The notes under the pieces were generated by a model. It was not told the DNA's origin, ran no database searches, and was given only the letters and a program-made list of their open reading frames with translations. Shown here in pieces: positions 46,085 through 60,129 of a stretch of 64,000 nt of DNA (its first letter is position 1; every line of letters begins with the position of its first letter). Origin of the DNA: Bacteroidetes bacterium GWE2_42_24 (GTDB lineage: Bacteria > Bacteroidota > Bacteroidia > Bacteroidales > TTA-H9); the NCBI GenBank assembly GCA_001768515.1, contig MEOA01000020.1, positions 5,873 to 69,872 of the forward strand, read 5' to 3'. The position numbers were made by a program, and so were the translations under genes.

Positions 46085-46597
46085 ATGTTCGACCGGATTG
46101 AGATAATCAGAGGGGATATCACCCAGATAAAGGTAGATGCCATTGTAAATGCCGCCAATACATCTCTCCTTGGCGGAGGTGGTGTTGATGGCGCCATCCA
46201 CAGGGTGGCGGGTAAAGAATTATACGAAGAATGTAAGGGGCTGAAAGGATGCCCGACCGGAAGCGCCAGGCTAACAAAAGGGTACCTGTTACCGGCTCCT
46301 TTTGTGATTCATGCCGTAGGTCCGGTGTGGCGTGGAGGTACTTCCAACGAGAAGGCTCTGCTTGCCAGTGCATATCAGTCGGTTTTAAACATTGCAGTTG
46401 AACACAAGTTGGCTTCTCTCTCTTTTCCCAATATCAGTACAGGGGTTTATGGCTTTCCCAAACAGGAGGCCGCAGGGATAGCAGTGATTACCGTTATCAA
46501 TCATCTTGATAATCATCAATGGCCACAGAAGGTGGTCTTTGTCTGTTATGATGAGGCTAACTACCTTATATATCAGGAGATGCTTTCGGGATTATAA
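46085..46597 (+). CDS. Macro-domain protein (O-acetyl-ADP-ribose deacetylase, YmdB-like)
   Basis: 170 aa with GDITQIKVDAIVNAAN, LLGGGGVDGAIH and ISTGVYGFP. Confidence 0.85.
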   Translation: MFDRIEIIRGDITQIKVDAIVNAANTSLLGGGGVDGAIHRVAGKELYEECKGLKGCPTGSARLTKGYLLPAPFVIHAVGPVWRGGTSNEKALLASAYQSVLNIAVEHKLASLSFPNISTGVYGFPKQEAAGIAVITVINHLDNHQWPQKVVFVCYDEANYLIYQEMLSGL

Positions 46598-47902
46598 TCC
46601 GAACTCCTTGGCTTTTTTGGATGATTTGGCAGGATTCCAGGCGTCGTTATAAGATGAGTACCAGAATATCTCCTTCACATAGGCCATGGAACGGATAATA
46701 CGCATGTAATATCCATTGTAAACCATCATCAGCGGGATATAGTACAGTAACCGCATCTCCTGTCTGCGCCGTTCAGACAGGGACAGAACGACAAAAAACT
46801 GGATATAGGAGGAGACAGAGTATATAATTAGCTTTAATGGAATAATAAACAGTAGAAATTCAAGATTATTTACAATCAGATCGACGAAATAGTAGAACCA
46901 GAGAACGTCGAGAATCAGGTTGTAGAATATATTATCAAAGAGTGCAAAGAAGTTAGAGAAGGTAAAAGCCTGCGACGGCATGAAAATATCATTGTGCTTT
47001 CTGAAACGGAAACGAATAAGCGATTTGCTCCACCTTAATCTTTGGTTCGAGAGTTTATTTAAGGTCACAGGAACCTGAGTTAGCCCGACTGCCCTGTGTT
47101 CGAAGGCTACCTTAAAACCCAGCTTTCTGATTTTAACAGTAATATCGCCATCCAGACCCGGGCCAATATCCCAACCGCCGAGCCGATCGAGAAGATCACG
47201 GCGGAATGCCCCGAAAGCGCCCGAAACAATCTTGTAGATTCCAAGGTAAGCAGTAACCATCCGGCCTACGCTTATCGTTTGCAGGTATTCGATGGCCTGC
47301 AGGCTTGAGAGGATGGAATCCTTTGAGTTTCTTACTTTGATGTTTCCGCCGACAGCTCCTACCCGTGAATCAAGGTAAAAGGGAATGATAATACTCTCGA
47401 TGGCATCTCTGTCGAACGATGTGTCGGCGTCAACGTGAACAATATATTTTCCGGTGGCATAACGTAGCGCAAGGTTTGCCGCACTTGCTTTTCCTCCGCG
47501 TTCTTCATTACGCAAATAGATATCGATCAGACCGTTCTGCTTCAGGTTGCGACAGATTGTGTAGGTGTCGTCAGTAGATCCGTCATCGACAATGATAAAT
47601 TCAATGTTTGAATAGGTCTGTTCCCTGAAGCCTGTTACAAGCGCAAAGATGTGCTCTCCCTCATTCTTTCCCGGGACAATAATACTGATCAGCGGATTTT
47701 CAGCAAAGAAGGCATTGCGTGCAGCTTCATATTTTAGTTTGCGCTTTTTGGAAGGCCAAACGATTACGGCCAAAACAATCAGATCCATGAGTATAAACCT
47801 GGGAGCCTCCAGGTAAAAGAAGTACCAGAAAAGATTTATTATACGCTCAAAACCTTCGTGCTGAATGTAGTAAAAGAAGTCTTCCCAGAAGCCAAATAGC
47901 AT
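46592..47902 (-). CDS. Processive family-2 glycosyltransferase (PgaC/NodC/cellulose-synthase-like polysaccharide synthase)
   Basis: 436 aa with N- and C-terminal TM segments. Motifs are IIVDDGSTDDT, HVDADT, GLDGDIT (equivalent of the TED position) and QRLRWSKS (QxxRW). It is the last gene of the four-gene operon. Confidence 0.85.
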   Translation of the reverse strand: MLFGFWEDFFYYIQHEGFERIINLFWYFFYLEAPRFILMDLIVLAVIVWPSKKRKLKYEAARNAFFAENPLISIIVPGKNEGEHIFALVTGFREQTYSNIEFIIVDDGSTDDTYTICRNLKQNGLIDIYLRNEERGGKASAANLALRYATGKYIVHVDADTSFDRDAIESIIIPFYLDSRVGAVGGNIKVRNSKDSILSSLQAIEYLQTISVGRMVTAYLGIYKIVSGAFGAFRRDLLDRLGGWDIGPGLDGDITVKIRKLGFKVAFEHRAVGLTQVPVTLNKLSNQRLRWSKSLIRFRFRKHNDIFMPSQAFTFSNFFALFDNIFYNLILDVLWFYYFVDLIVNNLEFLLFIIPLKLIIYSVSSYIQFFVVLSLSERRRQEMRLLYYIPLMMVYNGYYMRIIRSMAYVKEIFWYSSYNDAWNPAKSSKKAKEFGL

Positions 47903-47905
47903 AAG

Positions 47906-49297
47906 TTACCTCCCGCTTCCGATCAATTGAGTAAGTACATCATTCTGAGGTAAAGAACCATCAATGGTCACCGTCTGAACCGAAATCTCGATATCAATTC
48001 CAGGCAGACTGCTTTCGAGTAGCTTGATAACTGAGCCTTTAATCTGGTTAATGAGTCCGTCTAATCTTTCACGATTTGTTTCGGGAGATATAAATAAAAA
48101 GGTATTACTATTGACCAGCGACAGGATGTCGGTTGAAAGGGTAGCATTTTTTACAAAGTCGGCAATTTCAAGCATCATCCGGTTGTAATTGCTTCCCATG
48201 TTTTCACGGGTACGGGGAGAGAGCCTGATCACCAGGCTGCCGGCCGCACTCTCCTTAGAAGTCTTTGCCCGCTCAATTTCATATTTCAGGAAAATATTAA
48301 ACGTCGTAGCCGTGATAAAGCCAGGAATGCTAACGTCTTCGGCCACATCACGTGATGGACCATTCTGGGCAGTCTCTTCACCAATTGGCGTCAGCTCATA
48401 ACTATAAATCGGCACATCAATGAGGGAATCAATCGAGTTGTTCTTTTTACAGACAAAACAGAAAGCCTCCATAACCGGTTCCTGGAATACATGGCTGCAA
48501 TTTTTGCAATTGTAGATTAAGGATGGCTTGTCATAATCGACACCGATGTGTCGTAACATACGGTTGCATTTAGGACATACCAGATAATCGCCTGAAAGAA
48601 AATCATGTTCAGGTCCGACATAAGCGCAAACAAAGTGATGTATCAGGTTCTCGGTTACCAGGTCAGCCGATTCACATTTGGGACATGTTTCACGAAAGTT
48701 CAGGAATGAACTGTAGCATGAACTGCATACATGCAGCTTGTCGACGAACCTGCTCCTGAAATATTCCTTTTCGGTAGCGGTTTCAAATAGCTGGAACATC
48801 TCCTTCAGATTGGTCTGGTCATAATGATCTGAGATAACCGGGAAGTTATAACCTATATGGGACTTATGATCGACAACAGGGGTCAGGCGCGTTTCACGGG
48901 TAAACATGAAGCGCATGGCTTTTGTAAGGATCCGGATATCGGGTGAACTGCTGTCAACCGATACCAGTTGATCCTGACGCAATCGTATTCTGTCGATTCT
49001 GCTGATAATGGCCTCGATCTGAACAGAAGAAACAACACCATCGCTCATCGCCTCCATCACTTTATCAATTTCATGATTAATTGACAGAATAAAGATGGGC
49101 ATCAGGTAGATAGTACCTATCATCGAATTACGACATTGTCTGACGAATCTGGAACAACCATCACGATCGGTGTAGTCAAGAATCAGCGCATCATAAATGG
49201 CGAGTTTCCTGATGTCAACTGAGTTAAAATCGTTGATCAGTATAATCTCCAGATTTCTGTCGTTACTAATTTTCCTTCCAAAAATGGGATCAGACAT
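47906..49297 (-). CDS. Receiver-like domain, five-CxxC zinc-ribbon module (TackOD1-like) and degenerate GGDEF-like domain protein
   Basis: 463 aa. The N-terminus has a REC-like strand pattern (LEIILINDFN...YDALILDYTDRDG...MPIFILS). The centre has CSSC, CPKC, CPKC, CKNC and CFVC. The C-terminus is collinear with GGDEF domains, but NSNTF replaces GGDEF. Confidence 0.55.
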   Translation of the reverse strand: MSDPIFGRKISNDRNLEIILINDFNSVDIRKLAIYDALILDYTDRDGCSRFVRQCRNSMIGTIYLMPIFILSINHEIDKVMEAMSDGVVSSVQIEAIISRIDRIRLRQDQLVSVDSSSPDIRILTKAMRFMFTRETRLTPVVDHKSHIGYNFPVISDHYDQTNLKEMFQLFETATEKEYFRSRFVDKLHVCSSCYSSFLNFRETCPKCESADLVTENLIHHFVCAYVGPEHDFLSGDYLVCPKCNRMLRHIGVDYDKPSLIYNCKNCSHVFQEPVMEAFCFVCKKNNSIDSLIDVPIYSYELTPIGEETAQNGPSRDVAEDVSIPGFITATTFNIFLKYEIERAKTSKESAAGSLVIRLSPRTRENMGSNYNRMMLEIADFVKNATLSTDILSLVNSNTFLFISPETNRERLDGLINQIKGSVIKLLESSLPGIDIEISVQTVTIDGSLPQNDVLTQLIGSGR

Positions 49298-50458: not shown

Positions 50459-52600
50459 TTATTTTGATACTGAACGGTTATCCAGTTCAATGAGTCTGCC
50501 TAAATCATGGATGGCCAATTGATCGGCCCCCAATTTATCAAGCAACTTGCGAACAAAGGCCTCGAAGAGCAATCGATCTTTAAAATCGGCAGCGCTCAGG
50601 GCAACTATTGTCTTAGAAGCGTTAATAGCGAATTCTTCGGACACTTTCTGGGTAATATACTCGACATCCGGATGCTCGTATGCCATAAGGTATACCTTAT
50701 CGCACAGGTTGTAGATACTGTCTAGAAGTACCCTGTTGTAGTAAACAGGGATCGATACTGACAGTTGAAAACCATTGGCATCACAGATATTTCTTGCTTT
50801 CCTGAGCATGTTGATATACTCGGCCTCATACATGCCAGAATTGGTTTTGAAGTCATCTATGGTATGTATTTCAACATCCAGATGAATTGATTTCATTCCA
50901 AAACGGCGGGCAAGCTCAACCTTCTGTGTGAGGTATGAAACTGCCGATGCCGAATCAACCCTTTGGTGTCCTGTCAGTAAATGGGTGTTGATGTTGATGG
51001 CTTTGGCCTGAAAAACGAAATCCTCAACTTTTTGATCGAATTCAGGTGTCCTGTCATTACCTACCGAGAGAAGCACCTCCTTGATTTCTGAATTTCTCAG
51101 GTAAGCAAGCATTGTATTGAGCGGCATTTCTTTAAAGTCAGACGACCAGATATACAATGAACGTTTGCCCTGATATTTTCTCGATAAATCTTCGGGAGAC
51201 ATTACGCTGACAAAACTATTTGGGTTCTTCTCCTCAAGCGAGGAATAAATTTTCAGGAATTTTAGATACAAATCCTTCTTTATATCAACCATTTCAATCT
51301 CGATACTGATTTTTTCATCAAGAACAGATATGGCTCTCAACGGACTAAACGACTCAAGACCAAGGTCACGCTTCACGATCTCCTTCCGTAAACGCTCTTC
51401 TACAAGAAGCAACTTAAAATAAAACGAGATGTATTGCATCTTTTTAAATTGGTATTCATAGTAGTTGTTGAGCAATTCGCTACCCGCACCAAAACGCTCG
51501 TTTTCCTGATAGTTCTCCATGATCTTCTGTCTTGCTGCCCTCGATTCCCCCTGATGTGATTTGAGCTTCAAGGGAACACTCAGGTTAACGCCTGCTGAAG
51601 TATAAGTCCGGTCATTTGTATTGTCCAGAGCCATGTAATTGAAGCGTACATAAGGCTTCAGACTCCAGTCGGAAAAACGGTTGTACTCCAGGTCAATTTT
51701 GTCAAGCTTCAGATTGGTCATCTGGTTAGCGGTGACAGATTTGTTGAAGATGTCTACCATCTTGTTGGCATCCAGATCAAGAATGGGCAAATAATTATAC
51801 AGGAAACTGTCGTCGAGAATCATATCAGGAAATGAGTTCTTCAGTCGCCGGTTGTAATAAACATCATTGTTGTTCATCATAACCTCTACTTCCGATAATT
51901 TGCTCTGCAGATCAAGAATATCCTCCCATTGGATATAGCGCAGAAAATAAAGTTGATGTGCGATCTGAAGCTGCTCCTTCAACACGTTGTAGCGCTGGTT
52001 CAACTTTTCGATTTTCTGCCGTTTGAACAGATAAGTCAGGTAGTTGTATATATACAGGTAATTGCTCTCCTTGTTGTCGAGCGAACTTTCCAATTGCTGA
52101 ATTTCAAGATCTTTATCCAGGATTTTTGCGCGCTTCAGATTACTAAGCAACCCTCCACTCAACAAATCCCACTCAATGCCAACATAGAACCTACGGTTGT
52201 AGGTCAGATCTTCATTATCGAGTACGCCAGGTTCAAAATTTTCAATGTAAGAACCTGTGAGTTTTAGTCCGGGATCACCTATTAATTTTGATTTTTCTTT
52301 CTCATAATAGGTAATGAAGGCTTCGTTTTGGTTGTTAACGCTGTAATTGGTGCTGAACAGCATCCTGACGAGTACGGTATCATCAATCTGTTTAGGGGGA
52401 ATGGATTTATTAAGTTGGTTGTTAAGAAAAACATCAACCCTTGCTGATATTGATTCAAGACTCAATGAATCATGATCGCCAATGCTTGGTTTTAATGTTG
52501 TTACCTTTTGGCTGTATCCCGGTTCAAGCGAACATGTCATCAATACGATGATGGTTCCAAAGCAGGCAAACATGGATAATTTTGATTTCACAAACAACAT
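50459..52600 (-). CDS. TolC-like outer-membrane channel fused to a C-terminal GH18-like TIM-barrel domain
   Basis: 713 aa with a signal peptide. The two OEP-like halves contain YVGIEWDLLSGGLLSNLKRAK and SAGVNLSVPLKL. The C-terminal roughly 270 aa alternate beta/alpha segments. FGMKSIHLDVE resembles the GH18 DxDxE block and VYLMAYE resembles the GH18 MxYD block. Confidence 0.6.
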   Translation of the reverse strand: MLFVKSKLSMFACFGTIIVLMTCSLEPGYSQKVTTLKPSIGDHDSLSLESISARVDVFLNNQLNKSIPPKQIDDTVLVRMLFSTNYSVNNQNEAFITYYEKEKSKLIGDPGLKLTGSYIENFEPGVLDNEDLTYNRRFYVGIEWDLLSGGLLSNLKRAKILDKDLEIQQLESSLDNKESNYLYIYNYLTYLFKRQKIEKLNQRYNVLKEQLQIAHQLYFLRYIQWEDILDLQSKLSEVEVMMNNNDVYYNRRLKNSFPDMILDDSFLYNYLPILDLDANKMVDIFNKSVTANQMTNLKLDKIDLEYNRFSDWSLKPYVRFNYMALDNTNDRTYTSAGVNLSVPLKLKSHQGESRAARQKIMENYQENERFGAGSELLNNYYEYQFKKMQYISFYFKLLLVEERLRKEIVKRDLGLESFSPLRAISVLDEKISIEIEMVDIKKDLYLKFLKIYSSLEEKNPNSFVSVMSPEDLSRKYQGKRSLYIWSSDFKEMPLNTMLAYLRNSEIKEVLLSVGNDRTPEFDQKVEDFVFQAKAININTHLLTGHQRVDSASAVSYLTQKVELARRFGMKSIHLDVEIHTIDDFKTNSGMYEAEYINMLRKARNICDANGFQLSVSIPVYYNRVLLDSIYNLCDKVYLMAYEHPDVEYITQKVSEEFAINASKTIVALSAADFKDRLLFEAFVRKLLDKLGADQLAIHDLGRLIELDNRSVSK

Positions 52601-52736: not shown

Positions 52737-52880
52737 AATAAATCTGGTATTCAATAATCGAAATAAAAAAAACATCAACAAAAAGTCTGGTGTAAAAGCA
52801 GACCTCTGTAATTTTCCAAAAAATACACATCTTGTTCAATTTAAAACTCGCGGGAGTTTATTTATCCATGGGAACTATGT

Positions 52881-52888
52881 TATCTTTG
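52881..52888 (+). promoter_or_regulatory. Bacteroidota -7 box (TAtcTTTG) for the divergent REC-HK gene
   Basis: tatctttgcgg lies 18 nt upstream of the ATG at 52907. Confidence 0.5.
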
Positions 52889-52906
52889 CGGACTAAAAAT
52901 AGCAAG

Positions 52907-54502
52907 ATGGAACCCAGACTCCGCTTACTGATAATTGAAGACGACCCAACCAGTGCAAAATTGATGCAGATAACCCTTAACCGGCTGGGATATGAAGTTG
53001 TCGGGATTGCTCCTAATGGTCAGGCAGCCATCGAACTTACGAAAGAAACAAGTCCCGATCTATTGCTGATGGACATCAATCTTCCCGGCCAGTTCGACGG
53101 TATCGAGACCGCCAGAATCATTAACCAGAAATATGATATCCCCGTCATTTATGTTACAGCAAATACTGAGGATGAAACCATCAAACTGGCTATAGCTACC
53201 AATCCTATCGGTTATCTGGTGAAGCCATACAGCAGAGAGCACCTGAAGACCATGGTTGAAATGGGATTTTACAAGCACAAACTTGAAAATGAGTTAAAGA
53301 AAAATCAGGAAATGCTCTCAGTTACTCTTGAAAACATTGCTGATGGTGTACTAATGGTTCAAAGTAACGGAAATATCCTGTTTCACAATGATGCGACGAT
53401 TAAAATCCTGAATCTGGAAGAGGAAAATTTATCGGGAACTTCAATCTTTAGTTTGTTTCCCAACATCAGTATTGATGCTTTTGATAATACAAAAGGCAAA
53501 TCTTTTCAATCAGCCGGTGTAATAACCTACACCGATGTTCAATGGTCATCTGATAACGGCCTTTCGCTGATACTTGAACAGCAGATAACCAAGATACAAA
53601 ATGCCATCGATGACGCTTCAACTTATGTAATAACTTTCAGGGATATTACGGCACGCAGGATGGAATCAATCCGTTTGGTTAAAATCAAGGAGGAATTGGA
53701 AGAACGGGTTGAGGTGCGTACCCTCGAGATCAGAATGAAGAACCTGGAACTTGAACGTGAGAATAAAATAAGAGTTGAAGCCGAAAAGGAGCTTAAAGAA
53801 GCCTTGGTTAAACAGAAAGACCTGACTAATTTTCAGGCAAATATTGTTACTACTGTATCGCACGAATTCAGAACGCCGCTCACTACTATACAAAGCTCGG
53901 CAGAACTTATTGAACGAAATGTTAATAAGGGATCAGAACCGGATGGTATTCTGAAACATGTAGGGCAAATCAGAAATTCGGTAACCACCCTGACGGCCCT
54001 GCTCAATGATGTTTTACTGGTCGAAAAAATGAATGCCTCTAAACTTGAAGTTACTTTAGAATCTTTATCACCCGAAAGCTTCTTTCAATGCCTTGCCGAC
54101 GAATATAAAATTGGTACAGGTAGAAATCACGTACTCGAATACCAGCATAACGTTTTTCCTTCAGAAATTAATATTGACAGGAAACTCCTTGGACATATTG
54201 TCAACAATTTGATGAGTAATGCTTTTAAATACAGCCCTGTCGGCAGTACGGTCATGTTGGTTGTATTTATTGGTGATAATCTATTGAAAATTATTGTTAA
54301 AGACCAGGGTATTGGTATCTCTGAATCCAATGTTCAATATGTGTTCGATACATTTTACCGCGAGCCATCCGCCGTCAATATCGAAGGTACAGGTGTTGGT
54401 CTGGCCATTTTAAAAGAATCAGTTGATTTGATGGGTGGAACCATTCAGGTGGATAGCAAAAAGGGGCATGGTACAACCTTTACGGTTTCCATACCCCTTT
54501 GA
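52907..54502 (+). CDS. REC-PAS-coiled-coil-HisKA-HATPase sensor kinase
   Basis: The start is taken at MEPRLRLLIIEDDPTS. It has a receiver (LLLMDINLPGQFDG), an H-box (SHEFRTPLTTI), an N-box (NLMSNAFKYS) and a G-box (GTGVGLAIL). Confidence 0.85.
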   Translation: MEPRLRLLIIEDDPTSAKLMQITLNRLGYEVVGIAPNGQAAIELTKETSPDLLLMDINLPGQFDGIETARIINQKYDIPVIYVTANTEDETIKLAIATNPIGYLVKPYSREHLKTMVEMGFYKHKLENELKKNQEMLSVTLENIADGVLMVQSNGNILFHNDATIKILNLEEENLSGTSIFSLFPNISIDAFDNTKGKSFQSAGVITYTDVQWSSDNGLSLILEQQITKIQNAIDDASTYVITFRDITARRMESIRLVKIKEELEERVEVRTLEIRMKNLELERENKIRVEAEKELKEALVKQKDLTNFQANIVTTVSHEFRTPLTTIQSSAELIERNVNKGSEPDGILKHVGQIRNSVTTLTALLNDVLLVEKMNASKLEVTLESLSPESFFQCLADEYKIGTGRNHVLEYQHNVFPSEINIDRKLLGHIVNNLMSNAFKYSPVGSTVMLVVFIGDNLLKIIVKDQGIGISESNVQYVFDTFYREPSAVNIEGTGVGLAILKESVDLMGGTIQVDSKKGHGTTFTVSIPL

Positions 54503-54528: not shown

Positions 54529-55764
54529 TCACCGGTTGGCTACAGGTGCCATCTGTTTAAAGTTTACCACGCTGCTGAGTTTATACTGTTGTTGCTGATC
54601 ATCAGTAATTCTGCCCAGGATATATATAGCATAATTTCCTTTAGGATTTTTTCCTGATCTTATTTTTACATTCAATGTAAAATCAAAGGGTTCGGGAAGC
54701 TCGTTGAGTGTAATGGTCAGGTTTCTGTCGTCAGATGTAAAATCTATCTTTGGACCGATTTCCTGATCGGGAGCATAGAAGTTTTCGGGGAGTAAAACTT
54801 TTATTTCACCTTTTCCAACGATGGAGGCTTTATAAATCTGAATATTCAGCGTTATTTCTTCACCCTCTTCAATCTCATCGGGAACTACCCAGGCAATCAC
54901 ATCAACCGTTGAGGGATTGGACTGGCCAACTTTACCCTGAATAATTTCGGGTAATTCGTTGTTAAGGTTATTTGTTTTTAAGGAATTCCATGCAGATCCG
55001 GTAGCGGTTGGCTGAGCCTGCGGCTTATCTGACTTCTTCAGATCAAACATATAACCAACACCCACAGAGGTATAGGAGTACATATCCTGTTTAACGGCTG
55101 AACTTCCTTTTACAGTTCCGTCGATTTTATCGGTACTCGTACCATGTAATGAGGTTTCTATGCCCAGATACACATTATCTGAAACATTATAGTTTAATCC
55201 CAGTCCTACCGACATCGAACCATCGAGCTCGCTTTTGCTTGAAGGTGCTACTCCTGCAGGAATGGTAACCGGCACATCACCTGGTTTGGAGACCGAATTA
55301 TTTATTGCAACTGAATTCACTTTCCAGTTGATAAAGCCTAAACCAACCGTCGCATACGTCCGATAGCTGTTTAAATAGCTATCGTCCTGCCACAAACGGC
55401 TAAAGCTGAATGTTGTCTGAAGACTTGCGTTTAAAAGGTTTGATTCAAATTTATACCCAAGAGCCTCGCTTCTGCCCGCAACCTTTCCGTTCATCAGATG
55501 TGCACGAATGCCAAAGTATTTGCCCAACTGCTTTTCCAGTGCCAGGCCATAACCCAGTCGCCAGTCACGCATATATGGAACACCATCTTCACTCACATCA
55601 CCATGAAATAACACGGCACCAAAGTGAACCTCTGCACGCCAGTTTTTAAAGAATCCTCCAGTTTTAGCGACAGAATCTGTGGCCTGTGCTTTCAGGGGTT
55701 CCGCCGTTCCTAAAATTAATATTAAGGAAAGAAACAAACTGCATTTGAAAAATATCCTGTTCAT
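54529..55764 (-). CDS. Outer-membrane beta-barrel (OmpA-N/porin-like) protein with an extra C-terminal domain
   Basis: 411 aa with a signal peptide. It has alternating amphipathic strands with aromatic ends (WRAEVHFGAVLFHGD, YGLALE, VGVGYMF). The C-terminal roughly 130 aa form an Ig-like beta-rich region. Confidence 0.55.
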   Translation of the reverse strand: MNRIFFKCSLFLSLILILGTAEPLKAQATDSVAKTGGFFKNWRAEVHFGAVLFHGDVSEDGVPYMRDWRLGYGLALEKQLGKYFGIRAHLMNGKVAGRSEALGYKFESNLLNASLQTTFSFSRLWQDDSYLNSYRTYATVGLGFINWKVNSVAINNSVSKPGDVPVTIPAGVAPSSKSELDGSMSVGLGLNYNVSDNVYLGIETSLHGTSTDKIDGTVKGSSAVKQDMYSYTSVGVGYMFDLKKSDKPQAQPTATGSAWNSLKTNNLNNELPEIIQGKVGQSNPSTVDVIAWVVPDEIEEGEEITLNIQIYKASIVGKGEIKVLLPENFYAPDQEIGPKIDFTSDDRNLTITLNELPEPFDFTLNVKIRSGKNPKGNYAIYILGRITDDQQQQYKLSSVVNFKQMAPVANR

Positions 55765-57783: not shown

Positions 57784-60129
57784 TTAATTTACCACCACCT
57801 CATCTATGAACAGCCACGCGGGCTCTCCCGGGTAGAGATGATTGGCGGGCAAAGGCCCTCCGTTCTTGATCTTTAGTTTGATGAAGCGACAGTTCTGCTT
57901 CTTGACCTGAATCACCAGATTGTTTCGAAGCACGGTATCAGCCGGGGTAACCATGCTTACTGAAAGTTCATTTGATTGCGCGTATTTTCCACTGAAGTCT
58001 GCTACCTCAAGTACGATTGATTTGGGTAACATAATCCAGGCTTTAAGGTTCTGGAGAAAAGCTACTTCAATGTTCCTTACCATCTGCTCCTTGCCCAGAT
58101 CGATCGTTATTTCAATGTCGTCGCCTTCAAAACCAAGCCAGCAGCCATCGTTATGGTTTACACTCCCAAGTGTGGCATCTGTCAGACTTTGTATTCCACG
58201 TGCCTGATATTTGAAGCTGGGGGCTGGCGAAACCTCACACTTTAACCCGGTTGCTGAATGAAGGGCAAAAGCGCGTTCTGATACCTTGCCCAATTGCTTA
58301 CCTTCTTTAAATATGGCGGCTTTGATGGTGCATGAAGCCGGAATTTCAAATGGAGCAGAATAGACTACACTTGTAGCCGTGGGATCGTTGCCATCGGTTG
58401 TGTACCTTATTTCGGGTTTGTAAAGCTCGGTCTCCATGCCCACCATCAGCTTCCCGGTGCTCTCGTTGCGCGAAAGGCTGATGTCAACACGGGTTGATTG
58501 TTTTCCGTAGTTTACTTTCAACTGATCAAGTATGGCAAATTGGTGATCCATCCGGCGGATGAAATCATTATAATCGCGGTTCTCTTTTTCCGTCCAGTTT
58601 ACTTCTGCCAGGGCAATCATCCTGGGGATAGCCATGTATTCGGCATGTTCGGGGGTAGCAATAAATTCTGTCCAGACATTTCCCTGCGCTCCAAGAATGT
58701 GCCTGGATTCCATTTCGTTGAGAACAGGTGGCACAGGTTCAAAACTGTACACCTTTTTCAATGTCACGAAACCACCTATTGCAAGCGGCTCACCTTCCGG
58801 TTCTGCCTGATAGTAATCGAAATAGCAATAGGAGGTGGGTGTCATGATCACATCATGTCCCATTTTGGCAGCTTCAATGCCTCCTTCCATACCACGCCAA
58901 CTCATCACCGTGGCCTCAGGGGCAAGTCCTCCTTCAAGGATTTCATCCCAGCCAATCATCTTTTTGCCTTTGGCTGTCACCATTTTCTCAACTCGTTTAA
59001 TAAACCAGCTTTGAAGTCCGGCTTCATCTTTCAAATGTTCGGCAGAGATCCGTCGTTGACACTTTTTGCAAGCTGACCATCGGGTTTTGTCGGCTTCATC
59101 GCCTCCGATATGAATATATGGTCCGGGGAAAAGATCAGCCACCTCGGTCAGAACGTCATCGATGAAAGTAAAGACATCGTCATTGCCTGCGCACAGGATG
59201 TCAACATTGGGCCAATAGGTGCCCGGCTGAACGGGCAGGGTGTCGCCTTTGCACGACAGGTTAGGGTAGGCGGCGAAGACTTCACATGAATGTCCCGGCA
59301 TTTCGATTTCAGGAATGATGGTGACGTAACGTGAGGCAGCATACCGAACCACTTCGCGGATTTCTTCCTGAGTGTAGAAGCCGCCAACAGTGGCTTTCTC
59401 TCCCGGTTGCGGAGGTGTTACCTCATTCCAGAGCTGGTTATTTCTATCTACATGCCATGCCGACTTTTCCGTCAGGCCGGGGTATTTTTTGATCTCGATA
59501 CGCCAGCCATTGTCGTCGGTCAGATGCCAATGGAAGGTGTTCATCTTATAAAATGATAAGAGGTCGATGTATCTTTTGATGAAACTCACCGGGAAGAAAT
59601 GGCGCGAGACATCGAGGTGCATGCCCCTGTAGCTGAATCTGGGTTTATCTGAGATGTAGGCCGACTTCACCTCAATGGATTCGGCTTTACCCGAAAATAT
59701 TTCTAAAGGAAGTAACTGTTTGAGACTTTGTATTCCGTAAAAAATACCGGCACCCGTGTTAGCATGAATAAGTATGCCGTTCGGCTCAACCTTTAGCTTA
59801 TAGCCTTCTTTGCCATATCCGGAGTCAGCCTGAAAAGTGCTCAGCAGAATGTAATTATCAAGCGATTCGCCGGTCGAAAATGCCATTGTTTCAACCTTAA
59901 ACCCCGATGCTTTCGAGATGAACGCCGACAATGAATCCGCCAGTTGTTGCAACTCCGGCGTCTCAGGTTGAATGATAATCCGGGTGTTTGCTGAAATTTT
60001 AAAGCTGCCTCCATCGTTTTGGTAAAAGGTGGAAGGTGCCGGTACGATGTTCCGCTTGTCTTCACGGTGACCCGAGCAGGCGTATGTCAGAGCCAGGATT
60101 GCAAACAGCCGGTAAATGTTTTTTTTCAT
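57784..60129 (-). CDS. GH20 beta-N-acetylhexosaminidase with a C-terminal F5/8-type-C-like carbohydrate-binding domain
   Basis: 781 aa with a lipoprotein-like signal (LTYACSG). Motifs include RGMHLDVSRHF, FHWHLTDDNGWR and the catalytic HIGGDE. Confidence 0.9.
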   Translation of the reverse strand: MKKNIYRLFAILALTYACSGHREDKRNIVPAPSTFYQNDGGSFKISANTRIIIQPETPELQQLADSLSAFISKASGFKVETMAFSTGESLDNYILLSTFQADSGYGKEGYKLKVEPNGILIHANTGAGIFYGIQSLKQLLPLEIFSGKAESIEVKSAYISDKPRFSYRGMHLDVSRHFFPVSFIKRYIDLLSFYKMNTFHWHLTDDNGWRIEIKKYPGLTEKSAWHVDRNNQLWNEVTPPQPGEKATVGGFYTQEEIREVVRYAASRYVTIIPEIEMPGHSCEVFAAYPNLSCKGDTLPVQPGTYWPNVDILCAGNDDVFTFIDDVLTEVADLFPGPYIHIGGDEADKTRWSACKKCQRRISAEHLKDEAGLQSWFIKRVEKMVTAKGKKMIGWDEILEGGLAPEATVMSWRGMEGGIEAAKMGHDVIMTPTSYCYFDYYQAEPEGEPLAIGGFVTLKKVYSFEPVPPVLNEMESRHILGAQGNVWTEFIATPEHAEYMAIPRMIALAEVNWTEKENRDYNDFIRRMDHQFAILDQLKVNYGKQSTRVDISLSRNESTGKLMVGMETELYKPEIRYTTDGNDPTATSVVYSAPFEIPASCTIKAAIFKEGKQLGKVSERAFALHSATGLKCEVSPAPSFKYQARGIQSLTDATLGSVNHNDGCWLGFEGDDIEITIDLGKEQMVRNIEVAFLQNLKAWIMLPKSIVLEVADFSGKYAQSNELSVSMVTPADTVLRNNLVIQVKKQNCRFIKLKIKNGGPLPANHLYPGEPAWLFIDEVVVN

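Follow-up and report, generated by a model that had tools for sequence, protein, structure and literature searches.

The locus described here raises the question of why a TolC-type outer-membrane channel should carry a glycosidase-like barrel on the same polypeptide chain. The gene lies in a 64,000-nucleotide stretch of contig MEOA01000020.1 (the window, by which we mean this whole stretch), and the NCBI record for its 713-aa product, listed for Bacteroidetes bacterium GWE2_42_24 and Bacteroidales metagenome-assembled genomes (MAGs), calls it a hypothetical protein. The original prediction, made from the letters of the sequence, proposed a fusion of a TolC-like channel with a domain resembling glycoside hydrolase family 18 (GH18) and guessed at a synthase-dependent setting. 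Synthase-dependent exopolysaccharide systems, which produce cellulose, alginate, Pel and poly-N-acetylglucosamine (PNAG), are central to biofilm biology. To our knowledge nearly all descriptions of them come from Proteobacteria and Firmicutes, and essentially every characterised system that we know of has a periplasmic polymer-cleaving enzyme, such as BcsZ, AlgL, PelA, PgaB-C or PssZ. We show here that the fusion is the usual architecture of its barrel family and that it heads a conserved four-gene cassette. In our reading the four genes would encode a tripartite exopolysaccharide exporter that is synthase-dependent and of the Xcs/Bgs type, with the fusion as its dedicated outer-membrane factor.

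The channel part and its junction with the barrel

The open reading frame (ORF) of the fusion and all four peptides that had been quoted from it are present in the translation: YVGIEWDLLSGGLLSNLKRAK and SAGVNLSVPLKL correspond to aa 139–159 and 335–346 of the protein (alignment numbering), FGMKSIHLDVE to aa 567–577 and VYLMAYE to aa 636–642. The N-terminal part is a TolC-family outer-membrane factor. The duplicated OEP pattern that had been noticed there was confirmed by profile, predicted topology and fold search. The Pfam family OEP (PF02321) matches in two stretches with an E-value of 3.4e-7 and a score of 30.7 bits against a cut-off of 22. A full-length AlphaFold2 model, for which 14 homologues served as input (mean pLDDT 78.7), has the duplicated TolC repeat with four β-strands and four long helices per protomer. 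Repeat 1 consists of the hairpin strands 112–122/134–144, a 69-residue helix (151–219) and a returning helix (225–254); a short equatorial segment joins it to repeat 2, in which strands 313–325/331–341 lead into helices 349–412 and 420–454, the last being a short 'returning' helix. When this model was compared with the PDB using Foldseek, the best 38 matches were all TolC-family outer-membrane factors, including ST50, TolC, CmeC, CusC, OprM, OprN, MtrE, VceC and SilC, with E-values down to 5e-12 and target-normalised TM-scores of 0.5–0.63.

At the N terminus, a hydrophobic helix (residues 3–24) is followed in the model by a low-confidence stretch, and the homologues have equivalent hydrophobic N termini; the region probably serves as a signal sequence (MLFVKSKLSMFACFGTIIVLMTCSLEPGYSQ). 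A lipoprotein reading of the 'LMTC' found here was rejected as unlikely because the cysteine is not conserved among the homologues. At the other end, the linker to the barrel contains a short strand (464–466) and a helix (469–472), and model confidence dips at residues 474–477 before the barrel itself, where pLDDT values are 80–93. Both termini of a TolC protomer are on the periplasmic side, where the C terminus contributes to the equatorial domain. Because the TolC protomer ends there, the barrel is predicted to be periplasmic, located outside the duct at approximately the height of the equator and present in three copies per trimer.

The barrel family and its relation to GH18

The strand–helix alternation noted earlier in the C-terminal part amounts to eight β-strand/α-helix alternations, which form a (β/α)8 barrel in a confident domain-only model (pLDDT 94.3, pTM 0.89; 44 diverse family members as input). 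When 1.84 billion cluster representatives were scanned exhaustively with HMMER, 379 clusters, defined at 50% identity, were recovered at E≤1e-3 and 296 of them at E≤1e-10, whereas a word-indexed homologue search had returned one protein from the domain alone and eight, mostly fragments, from the family profile. Conservation was analysed in 44 divergent barrel domains that are 25–61% identical to the query. No substitution of W485, H573, D575 or P618 was found in this set, and Y483, S486, E577, D634, M639, Y641, D672, F673 and H698 are conserved in at least 90% of the domains. In the predicted structure all of these residues are located at or just past the C-terminal ends of the strands, the usual active-site face of TIM barrels.

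Several comparisons connect this family with GH18 and are in agreement with the GH18-like reading of the domain. Fifteen of the 44 domains weakly match the Pfam family Glyco_hydro_18 (PF00704; best E=4.7e-7), while each other Pfam family is matched by at most four of them, and the GH18 matches that were inspected span profile positions ~59–186, corresponding to β3 to β6. Searched against PDB sequences, the family profile finds the GH18 enzyme SleL/YaaH (4s3k) at E=0.037 and a chitinase (3g6l) at E=0.19. In the alignment to SleL, 'iHLDvE' is paired with 'IHFDFE' and 'ylMAYe' with 'VPMTYE', so that an H-x-D-x-E motif at β4 and an MxYE motif at β6 are common to both. With hhalign, the family profile aligns to hevamine (a sequence 100% identical to PDB 1hvq) at E=0.008 and pairs GIHLDVE with GIDFDIE and VYLMAYE with VWVQFYN. 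This places H573, D575 and E577 on hevamine D123, D125 and E127, and Y641 on Y183; D125, E127 and Y183 are positions that have been substituted in hevamine variants deposited in the PDB. The Foldseek search with the domain model ranks SleL second, chitinases third and eighth and PgaB fifth, and its further top matches include GH20 hexosaminidases (best query-normalised TM-score 0.68), GH84 and GH85. One homologue carries the NCBI name 'glycoside hydrolase family 18 protein'. The structure prediction with Foldseek search and the alignment to GH18 had both been proposed as checks, and the original reading of the C-terminal domain came through them with moderate support.

There are several observations that weigh against a GH18 assignment. 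The barrel of the window protein (~aa 455–713) matched no Pfam family at E≤10, GH18 included, and its direct comparison with PDB sequences gave chance-level matches only; nor did the full fusion protein match any NCBIfam model at E≤1. The inspected GH18 matches of its relatives reach at most 27 bits, below the PF00704 cut-off of 29.6, and the hhalign probability against the single hevamine sequence is low (4.8%). Foldseek TM-scores of the barrel are only 0.5–0.68, and unrelated TIM barrels that are not glycosidases (tryptophan synthase α, MTHFR and a designed barrel) score similarly. In the motifs themselves, the first Asp of DxDxE is an invariant His, and the residue after Y641 is Glu in the window protein and Gly, Lys or His elsewhere, without a conserved Asp.

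With regard to the β4 block, the earlier statement that the distal D-x-E is kept holds well, as the Asp is invariant and the Glu at least 90% conserved; the description 'partly degenerate' fits less well, since SleL shares the His-for-Asp replacement. Likewise, VYLMAYE may be regarded as the counterpart of the GH18 MxYD block as far as M639 and Y641 are concerned, both being at least 90% conserved, but not in its variable final Glu. Like SleL/YaaH and hevamine (1hvq/2hvm), the domain has a (β/α)8 fold with a D-x-E motif on β4. On the other hand, the Foldseek and hhalign alignments show identities to GH18 enzymes of ~10–20%, the α+β insertion is missing from the compact barrel (~235 aa), and its fusion partner is a membrane channel, not a LysM or CBM module. 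Because the window barrel reaches no GH18 profile threshold, we use the label 'divergent GH18-like' and do not claim GH18 membership; the relation appears to be distant, and the combined sequence comparisons support it moderately.

The four-gene cassette

The fusion gene heads a tight operon on the minus strand with intergenic gaps of 38, 52 and 3 nt, in the order fusion, HlyD-like adaptor, TackOD1/degenerate-GGDEF protein and PgaC-like glycosyltransferase family 2 (GT2) synthase. The guess of a synthase-dependent setting was therefore well founded, as a GT2 synthase and an HlyD-like adaptor are encoded beside the fusion. Both are hallmarks of Xcs/Bgs-type systems: a processive GT2 with a QRLRW motif, and an HlyD-type membrane fusion protein (MFP) whose gene is linked to that of the synthase.

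The adaptor, which is always encoded by the gene next to the fusion, scores 22.7 bits against Pfam HlyD_3, barely above the cut-off of 22.2, and also matches HlyD_D23 and Biotin_lipoyl_2; its NCBIfam match is RND_mfp, and its family profile matches ZneB (6.9e-4) and EmrA (0.002). The synthase matches PF00535 (E=4.4e-28) and PF13632. Its closest NCBIfam model is PgaC_IcaA (E=4e-50, residues 33–397, near full length), followed by NodC, and in the PDB it is related to chondroitin and hyaluronan synthases. PgaC/IcaA, NodC and the chondroitin and hyaluronan synthases all use UDP-N-acetylhexosamine (UDP-HexNAc).

The third protein combines a TackOD1 domain (Pfam, E=2.8e-56) with a C-terminal GGDEF fold; in the PDB its family profile matches the GGDEF domains of diguanylate cyclases at E=6.4e-10. 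The GGDEF signature is degenerate, reading NSNTF in the window and NESxF in high-GC homologues (L032:9901-11307 and L033:11741-13135). In the high-GC homologues an RxxD-like I-site (RRSD or RDSD) lies five residues upstream of this position, where the sequence in the window is LSTD, and the N-terminal ~120 aa appear REC-like, with weak support (E~0.4). The function of TackOD1 has been called obscure in the literature, and our literature search on it found no description.

A hybrid sensor kinase gene diverges from the cassette. Homologues of this kinase are adjacent and divergent in eight loci (L001–L008) and lie within a few kb in five more (L010–L012, L029 and L031). The kinase is likely to be a regulator of the cassette, and because its homologues recur beside the cassette, the arrangement suggests a dedicated phosphorelay. 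Two further ORFs of the window can be described. Directly beyond the kinase gene, a 411-aa ORF (54529-55764, minus strand) encodes a protein with an apparent signal peptide; its N-terminal half resembles an outer-membrane β-barrel, and its C-terminal half looks repeat-like. A 781-aa ORF (57784-60129, minus strand), located about 5 kb away from the cassette, contains a 'HIGGDE' motif and looks, by eye, like a GH20 β-N-acetylhexosaminidase. The features of the locus are listed in Table 1.

Table 1. Position of the fusion, its parts and the neighbouring genes in the window
Feature	Position	Strand	Basis or remark
TolC/GH18-like fusion ORF	50459..52600	-	ATG start, 713 aa
Putative N-terminal signal sequence, aa 1-31	52508..52600	-	From hydrophobic helix 3-24
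TolC/OEP channel part, aa ~45-454	51239..52468	-	Two structural repeats
Linker/second equatorial segment, aa 455-478	51167..51238	-	Between last TolC helix and barrel
C-terminal (β/α)8 barrel, divergent GH18-like, aa 479-713	50462..51166	-	Domain model and fold matches
β4 motif H573-L-D575-V-E577, candidate catalytic pair	50870..50884	-	Translation HLDVE confirmed
β6 motif M639-A-Y641, putative counterpart of GH18 MxY(D)	50678..50686	-	Translation MAY confirmed
HlyD-like periplasmic adaptor (MFP), 356 aa, N-terminal transmembrane helix	49350..50420	-	Pfam, NCBIfam
Cytoplasmic regulator candidate, 463 aa, TackOD1 zinc-ribbon and degenerate GGDEF	47906..49297	-	Third gene, conserved
Membrane-embedded processive-type GT2, 436 aa, QRLRW motif	46592..47902	-	Pfam, NCBIfam
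Hybrid sensor kinase REC-PAS-HisKA-HATPase, divergent	52832..54502	+	Pfam

Distribution and variants of the architecture

A scan of 185,579 species-representative genomes identified 30 loci with the fusion, all labelled Bacteroidota, among them Bacteroidales, Sphingobacteriia, Crocinitomicaceae, Salibacteraceae, Flavobacteriales and a MAG labelled Chitinophaga. Of ~160 barrel proteins retrieved, 137 are at least 600 aa long, and 134 of these have a TolC-like N terminus. The fusion is therefore the result of neither chance nor an assembly artefact, having been found in 30 species-level genomes and in nearly all long proteins, and it is the usual architecture of the barrel family. Gene order and strand of the cassette are kept in every locus with enough flanking sequence; all four genes are present in 26 of the 30 loci, and in the remaining four the cassette is cut by contig ends. 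Across the loci, identities are 24–68% for the fusion and 53–83% for the GT2, and the same gene arrangement is found for very divergent homologues on high-GC metagenome contigs (64–71% GC).

Some members of the family depart from this architecture. A tandem second barrel is present in P0023 and P0166, and SPOR peptidoglycan-binding domains occur in P0031 and P0145, in the latter directly before the barrel; Sel1 repeats are found in P0141 and BNR repeats in P0074. Separately, P0016 has an N-terminal insertion of ~110 residues (alignment columns ~85–200) that looks SPOR-like by eye and has no Pfam match, and P0002, a homologue from JGI of 708 aa that is 99% identical to the window protein, is without the residues VRKLL of the helix between barrel strands β7 and β8 (aa 676–690).

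There are also short proteins that have a signal or lipoprotein-like N terminus of their own (e.g. P0042, P0079, P0100 and P0113). The gene for P0113, a true stand-alone barrel of 282 aa with a signal peptide, extends into the beginning of the MFP-like gene that follows it (L036:679-2162 and L037:222-1573). Most contigs that carry stand-alone barrels are short, and these two extend as far as the MFP-like gene. Because the unfused, secreted form is also encoded directly upstream of an MFP-like gene, the barrel domain is tied to the export system and not to TolC as such. P0029 was rejected as a further stand-alone barrel, as it is a fusion interrupted by a frameshift-like overlap. In one Bacteroidota MAG (L031:6424-8861) the fusion is present as two ORFs of 534 and 286 aa with a 28-nt overlap, and the rest of the cassette is intact; the gene may be truly split here, or the overlap may come from a frameshift or an error in sequencing.

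Proposed mechanism and alternative explanations

If the cassette is an exporter of the Xcs/Bgs type, the PgaC/HAS-like GT2 in the inner membrane would polymerise and translocate a sugar chain, which most likely contains β-linked N-acetylhexosamine. The membrane-anchored HlyD-like adaptor would bridge the periplasm, and the trimeric TolC-like part would provide the exit duct through the outer membrane, with three (β/α)8 domains displayed around it in the periplasm. The barrel may then act as a divergent GH18-like glycosidase with its Asp-x-Glu on β4 and its Tyr after β6; in GH18 enzymes this set of residues stands for substrate-assisted cleavage of 2-acetamido sugars. Its role would resemble that of BcsZ, AlgL, PelA, PgaB-C, PssZ and XcsC, namely to trim, release or clear the system's own polymer in the periplasm, and the output would probably be controlled by the TackOD1/degenerate-GGDEF protein together with the neighbouring hybrid histidine kinase.

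With slightly better than even confidence, we favour the view that the system cleaves a HexNAc-containing polymer with a glycosidase of its own, the barrel, which would be tethered to a dedicated exit channel, because the cassette has no other hydrolase, the Asp-x-Glu/Tyr set is kept and the synthase is nearest to UDP-HexNAc polymerases. The fold matches of the barrel, which are enriched in HexNAc-acting barrels (GH18, GH20, GH84, GH85 and PgaB), are consistent with such a substrate. It has to be said, however, that the synthase reaches 170.9 bits against PgaC_IcaA (TIGR03937), well below the equivalog cut-off of 422.3. The main weakness of this proposal lies in the predicted geometry: a barrel outside a sealed MFP–TolC conduit would not meet the polymer inside it, and polymer processing would therefore need leakage, an open assembly state or a step before entry into the duct.

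The position outside the duct in the periplasm would also suit a barrel that acts on peptidoglycan, either as a SleL/YaaH-like N-acetylglucosaminidase or as a glycan-strand-binding module, and that opens the sacculus locally or anchors the channel to it, allowing assembly of the trans-envelope conduit. The peptidoglycan-active SleL is the best GH18 match by sequence and the second-best match by fold and shares the HxDxE/MxYE variant, some homologues carry SPOR domains, and many trans-envelope machines are known to have dedicated peptidoglycan hydrolases. Nevertheless, we consider this explanation unlikely. The TolC-based pumps characterised so far work without a peptidoglycan hydrolase of their own, the SPOR domains are limited to a few variants, and the barrel strictly co-occurs with a GT2 cassette that is itself without the glycosidase usual in such systems. 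Moreover, the peptidoglycan layer in AcrAB–TolC is located, according to a review, at the adaptor–TolC junction and not at the equatorial belt.

A second alternative, which we judge quite unlikely, is that the barrel is a non-catalytic, lectin-like module that binds the nascent polymer and guides or retains it near the channel without cleavage. Such a role would fit the remoteness of the GH18 relationship, the His at the first Asp of DxDxE and the variable Asp position of MxYD, and inactive GH18 lectins and inhibitors (concanavalin B, XIP-I and a chitinase-like lectin) are indeed found among the relatives of hevamine; at least one family member, P0068, has also lost both the Glu and the MAY block, reading HLDVD and LYAND. 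GH18 lectins, however, typically lose precisely the catalytic Glu, whereas in this family, among domains only 25–35% identical, D575 never varies and at least 90% conservation is seen for E577 and Y641, and the same His variant is present in SleL, which has been deposited as a spore cortex-lytic enzyme.

The sole significant PDB sequence relative of the family profile points in yet another direction. This entry, 10yv_A ('Putative GH97 from Cellulomonas fimi', 275 aa; E=2.7e-7), aligns with its residues 30–155 to profile positions 43–167 and has the LDVEPxTLxxW block in common with the barrel family (LDVEPwTL); it is, however, a stand-alone protein of a Gram-positive actinobacterium that is aligned over β2–β5 only. 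Our literature search for a publication on 10yv found none, and the GH97 label appears doubtful for the barrel family, support beyond the label being a single Pfam match of the family consensus at 0.069. The same consensus matches AP_endonuc_2 at 5.8e-5, two members match Spherulin4/GH135, GH191 structures appear in the fold search, and H573, D575, E577, D634, D672 and H698 could equally form a metal site. The barrel might on this view be a TIM-barrel enzyme of a different class whose resemblance to GH18 is convergent, either GH97-like, a metal enzyme similar to xylose isomerase or a hydrolase of the GH135/GH114/GH191 type. We nonetheless regard this as improbable, and the GH97, xylose-isomerase-like and Spherulin4/GH135 candidates were down-weighted, as each of these matches comes from one artificial consensus or from one or two members, compared with 15 of 44 natural sequences for GH18, and lies below its Pfam cut-off. 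In addition, the top 50 fold matches include no structure similar to xylose isomerase, and the GH18 motif register (β4 DxE, β6 Tyr) is reproduced in three independent alignments.

Significance of the arrangement

Returning to the barrel as a tethered glycosidase, a more far-reaching proposal would be that the cassette represents an unrecognised architecture class, in which a dedicated TolC trimer with three GH18-like enzymes around its equator forms an obligatory processing step that is switched by the TackOD1/degenerate-GGDEF protein. We put this forward tentatively and would sooner expect it to fail than to hold. If true, the obligatory step could trim or release the chain or act as a gate through the cell wall, and the cassette would provide the first functional context for the orphan TackOD1 domain and indicate a matrix polymer in Bacteroidota that resembles chitin or PNAG.

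Independently of this, the locus defines a domain family without a Pfam model and would link TackOD1 to polysaccharide synthesis. It suggests a compact and conserved four-gene alternative, mainly from Bacteroidota, and adds an operon-encoded example to a tripartite export model that is still unvalidated, and the channel–glycosidase fusion would give a direct handle on where and why a polymer-cleaving enzyme is needed in such systems. Widespread and well conserved, the arrangement lends itself to testing; its logic is unlikely to astonish a specialist.

Comparison with known export systems

The alginate system (Alg8/Alg44/AlgL/AlgE) resembles the cassette in having a GT2 synthase, an MFP-like periplasmic partner and a periplasmic polymer-cleaving enzyme. 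Its exit, however, consists of the AlgE β-barrel and the TPR protein AlgK and not of a TolC-type channel, and AlgL is a lyase that is not fused to the porin.

The Pga system shares with the cassette a synthase of the PgaC/IcaA type, to which the GT2 is nearest, and a periplasmic (β/α)8 barrel that is linked to the outer-membrane export step. In the Pga system this is the C-terminal GH153 barrel of PgaB, which is among the top fold matches of the cassette barrel; by sequence, though, the latter is GH18-like, and GH153 was not detected. No PgaA TPR-porin, PgaD or CE4 deacetylase domain was found among the cassette genes, which are thus not those of a Pga system.

In the rhizobial system for mixed-linkage β-glucan, BgsA/BgsB, TolC is required for polymer production and a tripartite complex has been proposed (PMC13438883). 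A GT2 synthase, an MFP and TolC are common to both. In the Bgs system, by contrast, the TolC is the housekeeping protein and carries no hydrolase domain, the product is a glucan and activation is by cyclic di-GMP (c-di-GMP).

The Xcs system, by which cyanobacterial cellulose is proposed to be exported, as summarised in secondary accounts (Maeda et al., 2018, via PMC8892547 and PMC12430437), comprises the GT2 synthase XcsA, the HlyD-like adaptor XcsB, the TolC-like Tlr1605 and the endoglucanase XcsC. As far as these summaries go, Xcs and the cassette agree in that a GT2, an HlyD-like MFP and a TolC-type duct replace the route of the BcsB/BcsC type and in that a glycoside hydrolase accompanies them. 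According to the same accounts, the Xcs hydrolase is a separate protein of the endoglucanase type, and the TolC gene of the T. vulcanus model is unlinked and not dedicated, whereas the operon described here includes the gene for its channel, to which the GH18-like barrel is covalently attached. In addition, the cassette synthase is PgaC-like and has no PilZ domain, and the regulator is the TackOD1/degenerate-GGDEF protein.

In the literature that we searched, neither a TolC channel with a covalently attached glycosidase-like barrel nor this four-gene cassette with its TackOD1/degenerate-GGDEF protein nor the barrel family was found to be described, an absence that is in itself no proof of novelty. 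The original claim of an undescribed arrangement can accordingly be kept for the fusion but not for the principle of export through a GT2, an HlyD-like adaptor and TolC. Because such export systems have already been described, what is new is the covalent channel–hydrolase fusion and this cassette, while its components, like the logic of tripartite export, were known before.

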